Made by a program: the position numbers and the translations under genes
Shown: piece by piece, positions 1 through 6,743 of the stretch
Layout of the letters: every line of letters starts with the position of its first letter
How positions within the stretch are numbered: the stretch's first letter is position 1
Virus record (IMG/VR): IMGVR_UViG_2548876937_000011
Location: 1 to 6,743 of that record
Direction: 5' to 3' (one strand)
DNA: 6,743 bases
DNA from: a virus
Lineage: Duplodnaviria > Heunggongvirae > Uroviricota > Caudoviricetes
Notes under the pieces: generated by a model
Told to the model about the DNA's origin: nothing
Databases searched by the model: none
Seen by the model: the letters and a program-made list of their open reading frames with translations, nothing else

Positions 1-419
1 CTGGGGTCGAGTCCGAGCATTGCCCCCGTGCTGCTCATCTCGGACTCCTGTTCTTTCTTGGCGGTCAGCTCCGGGTTTTTGACCATACCGCCCATTGCAC
101 CGGTAATGGTGTTGCCCTGGCTGGCAATATTTTTCACGGCACGTCGCCAGAACTCATAGGCCACGCACCACCGCTCAAGCACCGCGAGGTCAGTCACGCA
201 CAGCAGGCCCTGACCGCAGAGTTCTTTGGTTGTCAGTTGCCACATGATCGTGGCGAGAGGGAGATCTTCTTCAGCGAACCACTCCGGTGGCTCAACACCT
301 TTGATGGGCGTAAAAACAGGTTCATCTTTATTCAGGGCTCGCTTGCCGGGGTTTCCGGCCAGCGCCTTGCGCGCCGTTGGCTTGGGGCGACGCCCGGAAC
401 GCCCCGCCGTTCCAGCCAT
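1..419 (-). CDS. Phage terminase small subunit, P27 family (partial; C-terminus lies beyond the left window edge)
   Basis: Minus-strand frame is open from an ATG at 419-417 to position 1; I hand-translated the start (MAGTAGRSGRRPKPTARKAL...) and the last 60 nt (...KKEQESEMSSTGAMLGLDP) and checked for in-frame stops. The N-terminal RPKPT...GNPGKR motif is what I recall for P27-family small terminases. AGGAG lies 8 nt upstream of the ATG (complement of about 427-431). Not in the ORF track because it runs off the edge. Confidence 0.8.
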   Translation of the reverse strand, partial: MAGTAGRSGRRPKPTARKALAGNPGKRALNKDEPVFTPIKGVEPPEWFAEEDLPLATIMWQLTTKELCGQGLLCVTDLAVLERWCVAYEFWRRAVKNIASQGNTITGAMGGMVKNPELTAKKEQESEMSSTGAMLGLDP

Positions 420-544
420 ATGCGGCACTCCTGGTTAAATTTCATTTTTCGCGGGTATAAAAAAACGATGGGGCGGGCAGTCCGGAAGACGTCAGGTCAC
501 AGAGATTTGACCCGCCCCTCCCCTCAGACAGTTGAGAGTTATTA
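420..544. other. HNH-TerS intergenic region with G/C-rich inverted repeat (GGGGCGGG at 470-477, CCCGCCCC at 511-518); candidate cos/packaging site
   Basis: The inverted 8-mers, 33 bp apart, are seen directly. Their position between an HNH gene and the small terminase gene matches where HK97-like phages place cos. GGGGCGGGCAG loosely resembles the G/C-rich lambda-type cohesive end, but it is not an exact match to any cos I can recall. Confidence 0.3.
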
Positions 545-895
545 TCACTTAAGCCGTTCACGGGCCGTCTTCGCCTTATGACACGGCCAGCACAGACTCT
601 GCAGATTACTGTCGGCATCAGTGCCGCCATGTGCTTTAGGGATGATGTGGTCAACGGTTTTCGCTTCACGCGCCACACCAGCACGCAGACATAACTGACA
701 CAGGCCTTTGTCACGTTGCAGCACACGCGCGCGGATAGCGTCCCACTTAGAACCATAACCGCGCTGATGACGGGATTGTCCTGACTTGTATTGCTTCCAG
801 CCTTCGCTTTTGTGGCTTTCGCAGTAGCCTGACGGGTCTGTCGTGGTATTACGGCAGCCGCGAACGCGGCAGGATTTTGGAGTTCGAGGGGGCAT
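545..895 (-). CDS. Phage-associated HNH endonuclease (packaging-associated)
   Basis: 116-aa ORF with ATG at 895-893 and AGGA upstream. Contains a Cys-rich N-terminus and the HNH core ...DHIIPKAHGG...NLQSLCWPCH... It lies immediately upstream of the terminase small subunit gene, as in HK97-like phages. Confidence 0.9.
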   Translation of the reverse strand: MPPRTPKSCRVRGCRNTTTDPSGYCESHKSEGWKQYKSGQSRHQRGYGSKWDAIRARVLQRDKGLCQLCLRAGVAREAKTVDHIIPKAHGGTDADSNLQSLCWPCHKAKTARERLK

Positions 896-921
896 AAATA
901 TATTCCTGTTCTTTGTCCGGA

Positions 922-1194
922 CTATTTGCCTGCTGCCAGCAAAGCGTTACGGCGCATATCGATACTTCGAATCCCCGCTTTGTCAATATTGCATTGTCCC
1001 AACGCCGAAAGCAGGCTCACATTCAGATCCAGACTGGCCCCATAGGTCAGCGGCTCGGGAATGACTGGCTGGGGAGTTTCAGTAGTCAGGCTTGCTGGCA
1101 ACGGTACCGCCGGAATCGGTACGTAAACTGTTCGCGTACTTCCGCAACCGGTCAGCAGCGGCAGCAGGCACATGACGTGAAGCACAATCATCAT
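922..1194 (-). CDS. Rz1-like o-spanin (outer-membrane lipoprotein), overlapping the 3' end of the Rz gene in the +1 frame
   Basis: Internal ATG at 1194-1192 (second ATG at 1191-1189) within the 922..1422 ORF gives MMIVLHVMCLLPLLTGC...: a hydrophobic signal peptide with lipobox LLTGC, followed by a proline-rich mature region. Start choice (1194 vs 1191) is uncertain. Confidence 0.6.
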   Translation of the reverse strand: MMIVLHVMCLLPLLTGCGSTRTVYVPIPAVPLPASLTTETPQPVIPEPLTYGASLDLNVSLLSALGQCNIDKAGIRSIDMRRNALLAAGK

Positions 1195-1471
1195 CCGCAA
1201 CAGCCACTTTGATATCTTCCTGGGTTCTCTGTGACTCCAGTGCGATCTGCTGTTTTGCATGCTGGTTAGCCTCCAGTACTGTATTGACGATTTGCAGTGA
1301 TTGCAGGATGTTATTGGTAATGGCAGTTGCCAATTTGGCATTTTGTACAGCCTCATCAGCACGTTTCTTTTCGTACTGATATTTGCTGTAGTAGTGGTTG
1401 GCTGACCAGATGAAAGAACCAATGACAGTAACGAAGAAAGCAGAGATAACCAGCTTATAGCTCAACTTCAT
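1079..1471 (-). CDS. Rz-like i-spanin (inner-membrane spanin subunit)
   Basis: 130-aa ORF with ATG at 1471-1469 that overlaps the 3' end of the endolysin gene by 17 nt. It has an N-terminal transmembrane helix (LVISAFFVTVIGSFIW) followed by a charged, coiled-coil-like periplasmic region, and sits directly after the endolysin. Only weak resemblance to lambda Rz as I recall it. Confidence 0.6.
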   Translation of the reverse strand: MKLSYKLVISAFFVTVIGSFIWSANHYYSKYQYEKKRADEAVQNAKLATAITNNILQSLQIVNTVLEANQHAKQQIALESQRTQEDIKVAVADDDCASRHVPAAAADRLRKYANSLRTDSGGTVASKPDY

Positions 1472-1931
1472 TTACCACCCCACCAGCCTCTTTAAACCGG
1501 GAAATCAGGTCGCCAATTTTATGTTCATACTGACCGTAACCTGCACCAGGTAAAGACGCCCAGATATTGCTGCAACGGTCGATTGCCTGACGAATATTGC
1601 CGCGATCAATCATCGGTAAAGCGCCACGCTCTTTAATCTGCTGTAATGCCACTGAGTCCTGGCTTCTGGGAGAGAAGTCTTTCAGCTCAAGCTGCTTGCG
1701 GTAAGCATCCCACCAACGTGAAAGAAGTTGATAACGGCCTGCAGCTGTTGATTTGAGTTTCGGGTTTAGCGTGACAAGTTTGCGAGGGTGATCGGAGTAA
1801 TCAGTGAAGAGTTCGCCACCGACAATAACGTCATAACCGTGGTTACGTGTCGGTTGTCGCCCGTTATCCGTTCCTTCTGACCATGCCACCATATCGAGGA
1901 AAGCTTTACGCTGGGAATTTAGTACCTGCAT
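1455..1931 (-). CDS. R: Endolysin, lambda R-type lytic transglycosylase
   Basis: 158 aa, the same length as lambda R, and very similar to it as I recall the sequence (..NQRKAFLDM.AWSEGTDNGRQ.TRNHGYDVIVGGELFTDYSDHPRKLVTLNPKLKST.AGRYQLLSRWWDAYRKQL.LKDFSP.SQD.VALQQIKERGALPMIDRG.IRQAIDRCSNIWASLPGAGYGQ.EHK...). ATG at 1931-1929 with AGGAG upstream. Confidence 0.9.
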   Translation of the reverse strand: MQVLNSQRKAFLDMVAWSEGTDNGRQPTRNHGYDVIVGGELFTDYSDHPRKLVTLNPKLKSTAAGRYQLLSRWWDAYRKQLELKDFSPRSQDSVALQQIKERGALPMIDRGNIRQAIDRCSNIWASLPGAGYGQYEHKIGDLISRFKEAGGVVNEVEL

Positions 1932-1934
1932 AAA

Positions 1935-2261
1935 TTACTCCTTAGAGCCACCAAACTTATTACCGATTACTCTCATTGCAGCCCCACGAATAGCATCGAC
2001 CCCGATCAGCCCAACGCCGCCACCAATGGCAACAGAAAGAGATTTAGGCCATCCGACATACTCAAGAGCGGATGCAAAAGTCAGTGTCAGGGCGCCACAG
2101 AGAAAAATCTCGAGCGTTTTTCGCTTCCAGCCACCACCACCGCCAAAATAGGCAATGCGCAAGCCAGCCATAACGATCGACATAATTACTGCGCCCAGTG
2201 GTGTGTCTCCACGCCACCAGCTCTGGAACAACTCCAGCCAGGTATTTGGGTTATGAGGCAT
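1935..2261 (-). CDS. Putative holin (three predicted TM helices), not lambda S-like
   Basis: 108-aa ORF whose stop (1937-1935) lies 3 nt before the endolysin start. Three hydrophobic segments (LGAVIMSIVMAGLRIAYF, LEIFLCGALTLTFASALEYVGW, LSVAIGGGVGLIGVDAI) and a charged C-terminal tail. Position and topology fit a class I holin; I do not recognise the sequence as lambda S. Confidence 0.65.
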   Translation of the reverse strand: MPHNPNTWLELFQSWWRGDTPLGAVIMSIVMAGLRIAYFGGGGGWKRKTLEIFLCGALTLTFASALEYVGWPKSLSVAIGGGVGLIGVDAIRGAAMRVIGNKFGGSKE

Positions 2262-2412
2262 TTGTAGTTATCTCTCACCTCGCTGAAACAGCAGGTGCAA
2301 ATTGAGGGAACATCATGTACCGCAAATCAGAAGCGGAAACGTCAAAGAAGCCGAACCAATGGATAACTGCGGAATAGGCCTAGACCAACGAATCCCCAGC
2401 CCCAGAAACGAC

Positions 2413-2435
2413 AAAACCCGCTCGATGGCGGGTTT
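2413..2435 (-). terminator. Rho-independent terminator (minus-strand orientation); candidate tR'-like late terminator upstream of the holin
   Basis: Perfect inverted repeat AAACCCGC (2414-2421) / GCGGGTTT (2428-2435) with 6-nt loop. On the minus-strand RNA the stem is followed by UUUUGUCGUUUCU. On the + strand the tail is weaker (UUUAAGCU). Confidence 0.5.
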
Positions 2436-2469
2436 AAGCTGTGTGGCGAAGTAACCACTCTTAACACGA

Positions 2470-2553
2470 TACAATTTTTTTTGCGTACGCGTTAGTTTTT
2501 TATTACTTTACTTTTTGATACTATCGGCGTGGTTACAAACAAGGAGAACAGCA
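2470..2553 (+). promoter_or_regulatory. AT-rich candidate promoter region and RBS for the + strand cassette (may also hold a divergent minus-strand late promoter)
   Basis: A/T tracts and several weak -35/-10-like hexamers (e.g. TTGCGT at 2481-2486; TACTTT/TATTAC/GATACT between 2501 and 2522), none with good spacing. Strong SD AAGGAG at 2541-2546, 7 nt before the ATG at 2554. Exact promoter elements could not be fixed by eye. Confidence 0.25.
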
Positions 2554-2817
2554 ATGAGTAACTACTTGGAAGTTAAGAGAAAAATTGGTCAATATGCATG
2601 TGTTACTCGGTGGGGTTTTCCCTGTGCCGAGCGTGAAATCACTTTGATACAAAATGACATTAACTCCGCGATTCAAAGTGGTAAAGTTATAAGTCGTAGC
2701 ATGCTCCAAGGCATTATCAGCCGTCATGTTCCCAATACCCATTTCTTAATCACCGACAGTGTGGACAACTCTGATCTTAACACTGCATTAAGAATGCTGG
2801 CGCCAAAACAAAAATGA
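2554..2817 (+). CDS. Hypothetical 87-aa protein, first gene of the AT-rich cassette (function unknown)
   Basis: ATG at 2554 preceded by AAGGAG. Stop TGA at 2815-2817 overlaps the ATG of the next gene (ATGA). The ORF-track version 2515..2817 begins at a TTG with no RBS. No recognisable motif. Confidence 0.7.
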   Translation: MSNYLEVKRKIGQYACVTRWGFPCAEREITLIQNDINSAIQSGKVISRSMLQGIISRHVPNTHFLITDSVDNSDLNTALRMLAPKQK

Positions 2818-3554
2818 ATAATGATGTGTTTCAGATCAGCCCCGACGAAGTAACGTCGGAGCTGATTTCTGCAAAGGAAAGATTTTTACGTGGTATTCAG
2901 CCATACTTGTGTAATGGTATATCAAACCTTGCTGACCTACATGAAATTCAGCAGCATGCTTCAAAATATTTTAATACCGCTGTTAAATTAGTTCAAAAAG
3001 TAGATTTATGTAAACTGGATGACAATAAGACATTTGCCATTTCCTTAGTTGGAGACTGTCGAGCGGTTCTGGAAACTTATTTAGAATACTACGACATGAT
3101 GGTGTCAAACATTAAATGCCTAGAAATTGATCCAAACAATATTGTACTGTATAGCAAAGATGGTCTATCAAACCTCCAAAGAATCATTAAAAAGTATTCA
3201 TCAAAAGATATTTACACACCTATTATTGCTGAATTTGAGTCTCGAAATTTGCCAATCGATGGATTTACTATAGGCACACCAATGAATTGGAAATTAATTG
3301 TCACTGCCATTATTGGATTTTTAAGTTTTTGTATTTTTTTATCAATTACGCTGCTAATCCCAGATTTAAATGAATTTCAAAAGAAAATGATTTTCTCTTT
3401 ATATTTCATGAGCGCGGCCGTTGGAATCTCGCCATTCATTGCAAATAATATAAAGGTCAATGGGAAGATGGCATTTCGTGGTTCGGAATTCAAAGTATCT
3501 GCTGTTGGTGGTTTAGCAGCATTGATTGTTTCTTTCATCATCCAAGTAATTTAG
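2814..3554 (+). CDS. Hypothetical 246-aa membrane protein (soluble N-terminal domain plus C-terminal TM helices); candidate effector of the cassette
   Basis: ATG at 2814 overlaps the upstream stop. About 170 N-terminal residues are hydrophilic, followed by hydrophobic segments WKLIVTAIIGFLSFCIFLSITLLIP, MIFSLYFMSAAVGISPFIANNI and VSAVGGLAALIVSFIIQVI at the extreme C-terminus. Low GC. No recognisable catalytic motif. Confidence 0.75.
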   Translation: MNNDVFQISPDEVTSELISAKERFLRGIQPYLCNGISNLADLHEIQQHASKYFNTAVKLVQKVDLCKLDDNKTFAISLVGDCRAVLETYLEYYDMMVSNIKCLEIDPNNIVLYSKDGLSNLQRIIKKYSSKDIYTPIIAEFESRNLPIDGFTIGTPMNWKLIVTAIIGFLSFCIFLSITLLIPDLNEFQKKMIFSLYFMSAAVGISPFIANNIKVNGKMAFRGSEFKVSAVGGLAALIVSFIIQVI

Positions 3555-3556
3555 CA

Positions 3557-3576
3557 AAGAGGCCCTAAGGCCTCTT
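3557..3576. terminator. GC-rich hairpin between the convergent cassette and Q genes; possible bidirectional terminator
   Basis: Perfect 8-bp stem AAGAGGCC / GGCCTCTT with 4-nt loop CTAA, between the cassette stop (3552-3554) and the Q stop (3583-3581). The U-tract is weak in both orientations, so termination efficiency is uncertain. Confidence 0.5.
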
Positions 3577-3580
3577 ATAA

Positions 3581-3922
3581 TCATAGCATTGATAGCACAC
3601 CACTAACAAAACCTAATGCTGTTTGCATATCTTTTCTAATTGTCCCATCAGAACACTTACGCTTCTTCGCAATGGTGCGTAATGAAATACCAATAACAAA
3701 GTGGGCAATAACTAACTCATATTCTTCTTGTTTATATTTACGTAACCGTGCGACACAACCGTCTATCATGATACCTTCATCATCATCACACTGGAGGCGA
3801 GACTTTTTACCGTGTGGTAAAAGCCCCTTGAAGCCTGCTGCTACCGGCTGCCAGTCCACACCACTGTTGTCTGCTGCAGCCCATGCACCCCAGCGGTCCA
3901 ATACTTCATACATATCACGCAT
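3581..3922 (-). CDS. Late-gene antitermination protein Q (QuuD-like, Phage_antitermQ family)
   Basis: The N-terminus MRDMYEVLDRWGAWAA...AAGFKGL...SR.QCDDD...I.GC.ARL.K matches what I recall of E. coli QuuD-type Q proteins. The track ORF starts at a GTG (3937); I prefer the ATG at 3922-3920, which has GGAG 8 nt upstream and aligns with the QuuD N-terminus. Confidence 0.8.
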   Translation of the reverse strand: MRDMYEVLDRWGAWAAADNSGVDWQPVAAGFKGLLPHGKKSRLQCDDDEGIMIDGCVARLRKYKQEEYELVIAHFVIGISLRTIAKKRKCSDGTIRKDMQTALGFVSGVLSML

Positions 3923-3940
3923 CAACTTACTCCACAAAAA

Positions 3941-4936
3941 TCAGGCCAGCACGCCTATTGCCAGCGCACGATCGATAAAACGAAATATCAGCTCCAGCTG
4001 GGAGCCATACTTCTCTTCAAATGCCACGGTATCCGCATGCAGCTCGTCGTGATGCTTTCTGCACAAAGGCAACACAAAGAGGTCATGCGCTTTTGTACCC
4101 ATTCCACCCTGACCGTGGCCTATCAGGTGGTGGGGATCATCAGCAGGCTTTCCACAACATGCACACGGCTGTGTCTTAACCCAGCGCGTGTACTTTTCAT
4201 TAACCCAGCGGCGGCGTTTTGGGCGTAACATAAAAGACTCCGGCGACTCCGGATCCACTTTCAGCGCCAGCACCTTTTTCGCTTTATCCTGGATGATGCT
4301 GGTGGCAGGAACCGAAGGCACAAGGTCACTTTCCCGAGTGACAGACGGCACAACAGGTTTCGGTAATCTCAGTGCCTTACGGGCTGCGCTTTCAGGTAAG
4401 GCATCCGCCAGGTCATTACGAATCAGCCACCAGCACAGTTCCGGCATTGTCACGGCATGGTTATCATCAAAACCGAGATCCCGACGGACTACAGACAACA
4501 CCCAGCGGGCACAGTTATCCGTTGCCATTGATTCCAGCCGTTCCGTGAACTGATCGCGCAGCTGGTTATCGCAGTGCCAGCACAGACGGATTGCGCCCGG
4601 AGCGTGTCGCATTGTTGTCATGTTCTCGCTGTGCCAGTCGGAATGAGGCCACTGGCAGCCTTTTTCACGAAGTAACCAGCTTTCAAGACATTCCACGCCA
4701 CCAGCACGACGGATCACTGCCTCATTGCGGAACACGGCCCGAACGGCAGGATCATCCGCCAGCGGTTGTGATGCCGCCGGAACGGCACCACTGGCGAAAG
4801 ATGAATAACGTTCCGGCTCAGGCTCCAGCAGGACACGTCCCTGCATAAACAGGGGCATCAGCTCTGAACCTGGCCTGAACAATACGATCCCCATACGCGG
4901 GGCAATTTCAGGGGTCAGTAGTGCTCTCACGGTCAC
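3941..4936 (-). CDS. DUF968-family prophage protein (YdfU-like) with C-terminal HNH-like Cys/His cluster
   Basis: 331-aa ORF. C-terminus has CACCGKPADDPHHLIGHGQGGMGTKAHDLFVLPLCRKHHDELH, which I recall as typical of DUF968 proteins found upstream of Q in E. coli lambdoid prophages. Start is uncertain: GTG at 4936 (1 nt after the upstream stop) or ATG at 4894; neither has a clear SD. Confidence 0.7.
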   Translation of the reverse strand: MTVRALLTPEIAPRMGIVLFRPGSELMPLFMQGRVLLEPEPERYSSFASGAVPAASQPLADDPAVRAVFRNEAVIRRAGGVECLESWLLREKGCQWPHSDWHSENMTTMRHAPGAIRLCWHCDNQLRDQFTERLESMATDNCARWVLSVVRRDLGFDDNHAVTMPELCWWLIRNDLADALPESAARKALRLPKPVVPSVTRESDLVPSVPATSIIQDKAKKVLALKVDPESPESFMLRPKRRRWVNEKYTRWVKTQPCACCGKPADDPHHLIGHGQGGMGTKAHDLFVLPLCRKHHDELHADTVAFEEKYGSQLELIFRFIDRALAIGVLA

Positions 4937-4937
4937 C

Positions 4938-5780
4938 TCAATGAACGGTATCGAGCAGCTTTAACAGCTCAGGGAATCGGGACTCGAAGAAATGCGGCTG
5001 CGTCTCGCGCGGATTTGCGGGACTGGTGATGTTCTTGCCGAACATGCAACCTTTCGCTGTCAGCGACCAGAATTTTTTGATGTTGTTAATCGCGGTACGG
5101 CTGTATCGTTCGCGTTGTTCAACGATCCCCAGCTTCGCCATCTGGTGATATGCCTGATTAGCCGTAAGGCGGATACCATACTGTTTCAGCAGTGCACTCA
5201 GCGACAGCGTAGGACGACTTGAGCCATCAGGCGCGTCAGCAGGAGCATCAATGGCATAGCGCGGTGCCAGATTCGGTAAGCCAACAGCCTCCTGGAGTTT
5301 CTGACAGGCACCAAGCACTGAAGAGTTAGACAGGTTTAATTCCCGGCGCATAAAGTCCAGCAGAATCACACCAGCCTGCATCTTGTCAGCAGCCTGTCCG
5401 GATAATTTTTCCGGTGCGCTGGTTACCATGTCGAAAGTACGGATCACCTTCAGATGGAATGACGGGCTGATCCACATTGCATAGGCATACACCAGTTCCT
5501 TGCAGACATACGTTCCTCCATTCCGCCCTTCTATTTTACTTACTGGTTTACTACCCAAATTTTGGGTAGTTTCATTGAATGAACCGACACCCAAATTTTG
5601 GGTATCGATCAATTCCTGAACCAGCTCAGTAATCTGTTGGCTGGAAAGAAACTTTCCCGGCTCCTTAGTTCTGGCATTTGCACCAGATGCAACAGCAGCC
5701 CGATGCAGATCGTTCAGGCTGTAACGCCCATAAGCATCACGACGAACTTCAATACCATCAATGACCATCAGATTATTCAT
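4938..5780 (-). CDS. KilA-N domain protein with C-terminal KilAC/ANT-like domain (phage antirepressor-like)
   Basis: N-terminus MNNLMVIDGIEVRRDAYGRYSLNDLHRAA...KFL has the KilA-N signature. The track ORF starts at GTG 5813; I prefer ATG 5780-5778, which is preceded by AAGAGGAGAAA with 8-nt spacing and does not overlap rusA. Confidence 0.8.
   Translation of the reverse strand: MNNLMVIDGIEVRRDAYGRYSLNDLHRAAVASGANARTKEPGKFLSSQQITELVQELIDTQNLGVGSFNETTQNLGSKPVSKIEGRNGGTYVCKELVYAYAMWISPSFHLKVIRTFDMVTSAPEKLSGQAADKMQAGVILLDFMRRELNLSNSSVLGACQKLQEAVGLPNLAPRYAIDAPADAPDGSSRPTLSLSALLKQYGIRLTANQAYHQMAKLGIVEQRERYSRTAINNIKKFWSLTAKGCMFGKNITSPANPRETQPHFFESRFPELLKLLDTVH
5553..5604. repeat. Two copies of a 16-nt near-palindrome ACCCAAATTTTGGGTA (5553-5568 and 5589-5604) inside the KilA-N coding sequence
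   Basis: Exact 16-nt direct repeat 36 bp apart, each copy itself an inverted repeat (ACCCAAA / TTTGGGT). At the protein level it produces a duplicated TQNLG peptide. Confidence 0.8.
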
Positions 5781-5799
5781 ACTTCGTTTCTCCTCTTGA

Positions 5800-6189
5800 T
5801 CAGGCGGCTGCACCCGCCGTTTTCTCGTACTTACTGATAGTGATCTCGACCTTCCCTTCCGGGATAACCGGTCCCCACTCCACCAGCATTCTTTTCACCT
5901 GACTGTCGTCTTCCCACACACCCGCGTGGGTCAGGGCGTCAAACAGCGCCTTGTTATAGTTGTCCAGATCGCGGATCCGGTTATCCGGAGGAAACAACAC
6001 GATCTCCACTGAAGCAGGTGCCGACGTTGGTTTCGGCAGACGACGTAACTGCTCAACTATTGCTGCACACGCCGCGCTCTGGAATTTGCGCCCCGCCGCG
6101 CTTATCAGGTTCTTACCTGCAAACGCCCCTTTGTTGGGGTGTCGCCAGTACGTGTTCACGCTGGGCGGAAAAGGCAGGATCAGCTTCAT
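5800..6189 (-). CDS. rusA: Holliday junction resolvase RusA
   Basis: 129-aa ORF with the RusA signature region ...RIRDLDNYNKALFDALTHAGVWEDDSQV... ATG at 6189-6187 with GGGAGA upstream. Its start overlaps the stop of the upstream methyltransferase gene (ATGA). Confidence 0.85.
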   Translation of the reverse strand: MKLILPFPPSVNTYWRHPNKGAFAGKNLISAAGRKFQSAACAAIVEQLRRLPKPTSAPASVEIVLFPPDNRIRDLDNYNKALFDALTHAGVWEDDSQVKRMLVEWGPVIPEGKVEITISKYEKTAGAAA

Positions 6190-6743
6190 GCCACTATCTC
6201 CCTGACCAGCCGTTCTGCCTGCTGGCGAACCTGCGCCAGAAACGCCTCACCACATGCCTCAAGTTCATCGCGCCCGATGTAGCTGATTGCCGGTCCCTTC
6301 CAGGTCTTGTCGAAAACAGCAATAGCACCAGCGAAGAAAGCGCCTGTCGGCACCTGCTTCTCGTCCTTCGGGATAAACCAGGCAGGCAGTTCAAAACCAA
6401 TACGCCCGCGAATAAAAGCAATATGATCTGCATCTTCCGGCCACCACACTTCGCTGGTGGCAGCTTTGATCAGGAAAACATAGCGTCCGCCCTTATCACG
6501 CATGGCACTGGCATGCTTCATGATGTAACGCATGCCGGTGATGTATTGCCCTTCATGCTGACTGGCGCGGCTGTATGGGGGATTACCAAAGGCAGCCCCT
6601 TTAAGCTCCGCAAGACGTTCTGACCAGTCATGCGCCAGCGCGTTGTCTTCCGCAGTGTAATAAGCGGCACATTTGGCGTTATCACCATCAGTGAACAGAT
6701 CCAGAACAAACGGGCCAAACAGGGTGTTAATTCCCCAGAAAAT
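6186..6743 (-). CDS. Phage N6-adenine DNA methyltransferase (Dam-like; partial, N-terminus beyond the right window edge)
   Basis: The minus-strand frame of the 6186..6533 ORF stays open to position 6743 (hand-translated, no stop). It reads ...DLFTDGDNAKCAAYYTAEDNALAHDWSERLAELKGAAFGNPPYSRASQHEGQYITGMRYIMKH... The NPPY tetrapeptide is the catalytic motif IV of N6-adenine methyltransferases. Confidence 0.75.
   Translation of the reverse strand: MFWGINTLFGPFVLDLFTDGDNAKCAAYYTAEDNALAHDWSERLAELKGAAFGNPPYSRASQHEGQYITGMRYIMKHASAMRDKGGRYVFLIKAATSEVWWPEDADHIAFIRGRIGFELPAWFIPKDEKQVPTGAFFAGAIAVFDKTWKGPAISYIGRDELEACGEAFLAQVRQQAERLVREIVA

Follow-up and report, generated by a model that had tools for sequence, protein, structure and literature searches.

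A coupled two-gene cassette in a cargo slot of an Escherichia coli lambdoid prophage encodes two new protein families and is a candidate anti-phage module

Described pairs of soluble and membrane proteins and the layout of the prophage cassette

The lambda proteins RexA and RexB are prophage-encoded and are expressed separately from the lytic genes, with the gene for the soluble RexA located 5' of that for the polytopic inner-membrane protein RexB, and the ratio of the two proteins matters. The cassette described here, which encodes an 87-aa and a 246-aa protein (hereafter referred to as small and big), has the same layout with enforced coupling of the two genes. However, no sequence or fold similarity to RexA/RexB was found, and no Pfam family rose above noise for any member of the two families. 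Further, RexA is much larger than small (279 aa versus 87 aa), the membrane protein of the cassette has a 150-aa cytoplasmic domain of its own and three rather than four transmembrane (TM) helices, and relatives of the pair contain one to three paralogous small subunits. A second resemblance is to type II toxin-antitoxin systems with a membrane toxin, in which a small 5' gene is coupled to a potentially toxic partner and which reside on mobile elements and possibly act by abortive infection; P4 gop-beta-cII is an example of a toxin-antitoxin system in a hotspot of mobile genetic elements (PMC9122126). The small gene is likewise always 5' of its partner and coupled to it, but we found neither a DNA-binding domain (HTH, RHH, AbrB or Phd) nor homology to a known antitoxin family in its product, which is also duplicated or fused in relatives. 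Third, the cassette would share the general logic of a soluble sensor or partner and a membrane-disrupting effector with Kiwa KwaAB, the CBASS 2TM effectors and the HAD-hydrolase plus TM and RT plus TM systems (Rousset, PMC9122126), and such TM-effector systems also occur in hotspots of phages, satellites and islands. In contrast to these, no PADLOC model fits the pair or its distant relatives, and no enzymatic or nucleotide-signalling domain was seen. A holin/antiholin lysis pair is not a suitable comparison: the cassette is on the strand opposite to holin, endolysin and Rz, neither a Pfam nor a PHROG holin match was obtained, and the prophage has its own lambda-family holin.

The window (i.e. 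the whole stretch of 6,743 nucleotides that was analysed, positions 1 to 6,743 of IMG/VR record IMGVR_UViG_2548876937_000011) covers the junction at the late region of a lambdoid prophage of E. coli, with the phage genes on the minus strand (Table 1). The small and big ORFs are on the plus strand, between Q and the late-promoter block and holin, and thus run opposite to the late genes. The GC content of the cassette (33-39%, compared with 50-57% in the flanks) marks it as foreign cargo. Among 5426 complete E. coli genomes, 20 contain the full cassette, which occurs in two allelic forms (about 99-100% and 94% identity), and 428 further E. coli records matched part of the query only; both coding sequences are annotated by PGAP as "hypothetical protein" in identical prophages. 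We note that in strain 720632, where the cassette is identical, KilA-N is broken by an IS3-family element (positions 10499-12621 of that locus, L001, versus window 4938-5813), and a GrlR-family gene that the window does not have lies between the HNH and spanin genes (L001 5630-6393 versus window 545-895). The prophage is a mosaic.

Table 1. Coordinates of the cassette, its control and boundary elements and the surrounding prophage genes in the window
Feature	Position	Strand	Basis or remark
HNH	545-895	-	prophage gene
Rz	1079-1471	-	prophage gene
GH24 lysozyme	1455-1931	-	prophage gene
Lambda-family holin	1935-2261	-	prophage gene
Intrinsic-terminator hairpin, AAACCCGCCATCGAGCGGGTTT + TGTCGTTTCT	2435-2414	-	terminator scan; late-gene strand, just downstream of conserved block
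Conserved boundary block of cargo slot, ~100 nt	2414..2510, or about 2414-2530	-	terminator scan and cross-locus conservation
Putative extended -10 promoter of cassette, TGaTACTAT	2516..2524	+	inferred from conservation
Shine-Dalgarno of small gene, AAGGAG	2541..2546	+	sequence; 7 nt 5' of ATG
Small gene, 87 aa	2554..2817	+	ATG 2554, TGA 2815-2817; ORF, PGAP CDS, homologues and alignment, AF2, dN/dS
ATGA stop/start overlap	2814..2817	+	big-gene ATG 2814-2816 over small-gene TGA 2815-2817; sequence, junctions kept in other genera
Big gene, 246 aa	2814..3554	+	N-terminal helical domain and three TM helices
GC-rich hairpin, AAGAGGCC-CTAA-GGCCTCTT	3557..3576	.	between convergent big gene and Q gene; read from sequence
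Antiterminator Q	3581-3937	-	prophage gene
DUF968	3941-4936	-	prophage gene
KilA-N	4938-5813	-	prophage gene
RusA	5800-6189	-	prophage gene

A sequence-only reading of the window had noted the overlap of the 87-aa ORF with the start codon of the membrane protein, and this was confirmed. We looked for a Shine-Dalgarno sequence of the big gene and found none, which fits translational coupling. The Shine-Dalgarno sequence of the small gene has AAGGGA/AAAGGA equivalents in the Citrobacter and Klebsiella loci. A TTG codon at 2515 was considered as the start of the small gene and rejected. The putative promoter of the cassette was not called by the consensus scanner; its pattern, TGnTAnnnT, is present at the same position in four aligned loci from E. 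coli, Citrobacter and Klebsiella. At the far end of the cassette, the GC-rich hairpin is likely to be a terminator for big, Q or both, and was missed by the terminator scanner because it has no T-run. At the near end, the boundary block is nearly identical among loci with cassette proteins that are only ~50% identical, and it is also found in the phages mEp460 and SfII and in Stx2a phages, which carry other cargo. This block is presumed to contain the Q-dependent late promoter and the early terminator region, and the intrinsic-terminator hairpin within it looks like a short-transcript terminator for Q antitermination to override, like lambda tR'; Rfam detected no RNA family in the window and none for this hairpin.

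Small and big define two new families of proteins without a recognized fold or domain

Neither window protein was matched in Pfam, NCBIfam or PADLOC, and Pfam gave no match for any other family member. PADLOC-DB 2.0 (2023) contained no meaningful match to the window proteins or to their Citrobacter, Klebsiella and P2-like relatives, and PDB profile searches with both proteins produced noise only (E >= 0.09), with no significant fold match. Two protein groups of unknown function were matched, PHROG 5814 by big (2.7e-14) and PHROG 31842 by small (5.6e-7). A literature search by accession numbers, motif strings and PHROG identifiers found nothing, and the architecture of the pair differs from those of the Tai systems (PMC11364771), the P2/P4 systems of Rousset 2022 (PMC9122126) and Bandua, Aernus, Toga, Reve, Crouga and Hailong (PMC13586616). 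We conclude that both families are new and have no recognized fold or domain.

The small family is rare. Relatives of the window protein obtained by a word-indexed search were enterobacterial only (52-100% identity), and when 1.84 billion representatives were searched exhaustively with an HMMER profile, 26 clusters were recovered at E <= 0.001, all of 62-101 aa and none fused to another domain. In an alignment of 33 family sequences, Asp-71, Asn-72 and Asp-74 are invariant, and Trp-20, Ile-32, Ser-73, Leu-75 and Leu-79 are conserved in at least 90%. The most conserved element is a C-terminal signature, (G/S)VDNSDLN(T/A)LL, which in the window protein reads SVDNSDLNTALR (residues 69-80); a second motif, W-x-P-(S/T)-x-x-Q-L, is located near the N terminus. 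Comparison with the 94% allele gave a dN/dS of 0.45 for the small gene. The ORF is thus real and conserved in homologous loci, so the idea that it is a chance or non-functional reading frame, which has its small size alone in its favor, is already refuted by conservation across phyla, a dN/dS below 1, the Shine-Dalgarno sequence and the PGAP call, and we give it practically no weight. The JGI name "cell division ATPase FtsA" for the 87-aa protein (cluster P0001) was unsupported and looks like an annotation error.

The best AF2 model of small (pLDDT 81.7; the other four scored 58-66, i.e. moderate quality) is an alpha/beta arrangement in the order helix-strand-helix-helix-strand-helix. The protein has neither a signal peptide nor a TM segment and is predicted to be cytoplasmic. 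Two cysteines had drawn attention as a possible functional feature, but they are not conserved: Cys-16 is Asn in one 90%-identical homologue and Met or Leu in the Citrobacter and Klebsiella homologues, in which Cys-24 is Val or Leu. A redox or metal site formed by this pair was rejected for this reason. Distant members have semi-conserved cysteines at the sites equivalent to Leu-51 and Val-59 of the window protein, which suggests positions in the hydrophobic core. The sequence-only reading had also offered "regulator" as a role for small. A role in transcriptional control, either of the cassette or of the phage late genes, is favored by the small size of the protein, by the upstream position of its gene next to the late promoter region and by the basic pI of the window protein (9.4). 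However, neither an HTH, which had not been identified with confidence before, nor any other DNA-binding fold was found in the AF2 model or by PDB and Pfam profile searches, and the charge of the family is not conserved (pI 4.9-9.6), making a conserved nucleic acid-binding surface unlikely. We therefore regard a regulator as very improbable.

The AF2 model of big (pLDDT 70.9, with weak TM regions) contains a helical N-terminal domain at about residues 10-143 and helices at 159-181, 187-209 and 230-245; hydropathy confirms three TM segments, and the TM helices are thus placed at about 159-181, 187-209/192-210 and 228-246. No signal peptide precedes the N-terminal domain (158 aa), and a loop rich in Lys and Arg at 210-229 fits an N-in topology, with which the N-terminal domain would be cytoplasmic. 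The dN/dS of the big gene against the 94% allele was 0.22. An hhalign comparison of small with the N-terminal domain of big gave a probability of 3.4%, i.e. no relationship, and a word-indexed profile search for homologues of big added nothing.

The small and big genes are obligately linked

To collect loci, we searched genomes, viral contigs and metagenomes with sequence patterns and then scanned every locus with HMMs. In some 30 distinct loci of wide taxonomic spread, every small gene has a big gene directly 3' of it. Conversely, one to three tandem small paralogs lie immediately 5' of almost all intact big genes examined, with junctions of -29 to +9 nt in our own ORF calls (-44 nt in Cedecea by annotation). 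The pair is present in Enterobacteriaceae, Pseudoalteromonas, Noviherbaspirillum, Ignavibacteriales and metagenomes. The pairs of Citrobacter (87 + 247 aa) and Klebsiella (86 + 249 aa) also overlap by ATGA and lie between Q and holin, although the lysis and replication modules of these loci differ. We conclude that the linkage is obligate, and the earlier proposal that the small protein is the partner of the membrane protein is borne out by the co-occurrence of their homologues.

The number of small genes varies. A single one precedes big in enteric phages, P2-like phages and several metagenomic loci, whereas two tandem paralogs are found in Ignavibacteriales (L013), Noviherbaspirillum (L014), locus L046 and a Pseudoalteromonas plasmid (L069), and three in L050, L051 and L058. 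The distal paralog of the Ignavibacteriales and Noviherbaspirillum loci is a conserved type of its own, indicating that the duplication is old and the copies specialized. In the second system of L058, two small domains are fused in one 178-aa protein, the gene of which overlaps that of big by ATGA; this suggests that small paralogs act as one complex. We note that this metagenomic locus (872-4842) contains two tandem systems, three small genes plus big followed by the fusion plus big, adjoining a PD-T4-6-like Ser/Thr kinase and a DDE transposase. Separately, Cronobacter and Cedecea plasmids have mini-ORFs 5' of the small gene (L070 2421-2594 and L071 2404-2670) with low-complexity N termini and only a degenerate copy of the C-terminal motif (GGLDLSPTMELL and DGLDTSTAKMML).

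The exceptions are few. First, a Pseudomonas aeruginosa plasmid has an intact big gene and no small gene, with an IS30-family element 130 nt upstream. Second, on Acinetobacter ursingii plasmid pRIVM_C010559_5 (L068 607-1811), big is also without a small gene, and the ORF upstream of it has a reverse transcriptase-like motif (NIDIENFFPS); this may be a chimeric RT plus TM arrangement or a remnant. Third, in a recurrent E. coli allele, a premature stop divides big into parts of 186 aa and 62 aa, and small is intact; such truncated-big/intact-small alleles occur on eight contigs. The split allele is carried, among others, by the E. coli contigs of L062-L065, and the L062 locus is flanked by IS1 fragments. 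Fourth, one metagenomic contig has an in-frame deletion of 25 codons in the small gene, with big intact and still coupled.

These arrangements bear on a classic toxin-antitoxin or addiction module, in which the membrane protein would be a constitutive toxin, small its stoichiometric antitoxin and stabilization of the prophage or plasmid the outcome. The 5' position and translational coupling of small, the near absence of big genes without it, the truncated-big/intact-small alleles and the occurrence of some members on small plasmids beside a GNAT/DUF1778 toxin-antitoxin pair all agree with this explanation. However, small has no DNA-binding or known antitoxin fold and its charge is not conserved across the family. 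Further, paralogs that diverged long ago (one to three per locus) and a fusion of two small domains are unusual for antitoxins and argue weakly against it, as do two single cases, the contig with the 25-codon deletion and the plasmid on which big is left without small after the IS insertion. Overall, we consider an addiction module unlikely.

Cargo slots, defence neighbours and a proposed function

To compare the site of the cassette with that in phages with the same Q family, we used loci L059, L060 and L061. The slot between Q and the late promoter (window 2414-2530 to 3555-3580) holds unrelated plus-strand cassettes in these phages, encoding 343 + 179 aa in Stx2a_1447, 308 aa in mEp460 and 340 + 194 aa in SfII, and the gap from the Q stop codon to the late-promoter/terminator block is therefore a cargo-swap slot. 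The SfII cassette is the PADLOC candidate PDC-M53 (genes 50/49); like those of small and big, its two genes overlap or adjoin each other and occupy exactly this slot on the opposite strand, but the proteins are unrelated and PDC-M53 is so far a candidate by computation only. A P2-like phage has a distant member of the pair (85 + 233 aa; ~28% identity in the N-terminal domain of big) on the opposite strand between G and FI, at the site of fun(Z) in P2, a gene for a single 528-aa protein. Canonical P2 (NC_001895) gave no tblastn match to the window proteins in the phage collection, and a locus scan of its fun(Z) region was empty. A hotspot of defence and accessory genes has been described within the P2 tail genes, downstream of GpL (PMC13586616), and the G-FI position appears to be this hotspot, a region that the paper does not name. 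Other loci with the pair are on plasmids and islands, and neighbours of the module outside these slots include integrases, transposases, a relaxase and genes for phage replication. In the lambdoid prophage, the module is a "moron", i.e. cargo acquired by horizontal transfer.

A PADLOC scan of 74 neighbour ORFs from 16 diverse loci detected PD-T4-6 (8e-226), GajB (4e-177), PD-Lambda-1 (1e-161), BovA (2e-159), a CBASS cyclase (1e-139) with a 2TM effector (8e-80) and HamA/HamB, i.e. components of PD-T4-6, Gabija-like, PD-Lambda-1, Borvo, CBASS and Hachiman systems; the matches were placed in individual loci via Pfam matches and annotation. TIR and CHAT proteins are annotated beside the module in some loci. 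The module is thus recurrent in variable hotspots of mobile genetic elements and next to known defence systems, the operational basis on which it is a candidate for defence. Such an association is not proof, because mobile elements carry addiction modules and genes for exclusion or conversion as cargo too, and by homology neither small nor big is tied to defence, toxicity or membrane damage.

Non-abortive lysogenic conversion, e.g. an inner-membrane superinfection exclusion protein that blocks DNA entry or an envelope modification, with small as an assembly or stabilizing subunit, would account for the moron positions on the strand opposite to the late genes, which are typical of genes expressed in lysogens, and for the predicted inner-membrane product; by annotation, the Z/fun slot of P2 classically holds a T5-exclusion gene. 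However, the module is found equally on plasmids and non-phage islands, in distant phyla and next to general defence systems, and a large conserved cytoplasmic domain with soluble partners points to sensing inside the cell. Most known exclusion proteins are small, single-component membrane proteins, which we also count against conversion. On balance, we find this explanation distinctly unlikely.

The siting of the cassette in cargo slots beside antiviral genes makes it most likely that it is a new anti-phage module, and we favor, at a probability of roughly 0.55, a prophage moron in which the soluble 87-aa subunit and the 246-aa inner-membrane protein form an abortive infection-type system. 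According to this proposal, the cassette would be transcribed from its own promoter, divergent from the late operon and convergent with Q, and the ATGA coupling, with big having no Shine-Dalgarno sequence of its own, would fix the ratio of the two proteins. Small would bind the cytoplasmic domain of big via its conserved C-terminal DNSDLN helix and control it, and the TM part would be the effector that damages or depolarizes the membrane upon infection; being convergent with Q, the cassette may be expressed less when the prophage itself is induced. We infer the binding of small to big, the membrane damage, the anti-phage function and the direction of control (activator or sensor versus inhibitor). 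With respect to the last, the paralog series, the fusion and the two cases of big without a functional small lean slightly toward a structural or sensor subunit. A broader version of the anti-phage module is more tentative and, in our estimate, more apt to be wrong than right: an unrecognized anti-phage family extending from Proteobacteria to Ignavibacteria, in which one to three ~85-aa DNSDLN-motif paralogs, sometimes fused, might assemble on the cytoplasmic helical domain of the three-TM effector as phage sensors or a gate, with the number and sequence of the paralogs setting trigger specificity and convergent Q possibly turning the cassette off in lytic growth.

As an addiction module or an exclusion gene, the cassette would still represent a new family, though of ordinary significance. 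If it is active in defence, two families without a known fold or domain would join the bacterial immune repertoire, and the pair (87 + 246 aa) would provide a compact model of a tiny soluble subunit controlling a membrane effector. Apart from this question, the gap between Q and the late promoter in this lambdoid group is, like the P2/P4 hotspots, a site of cargo exchange and lends itself to systematic mining.
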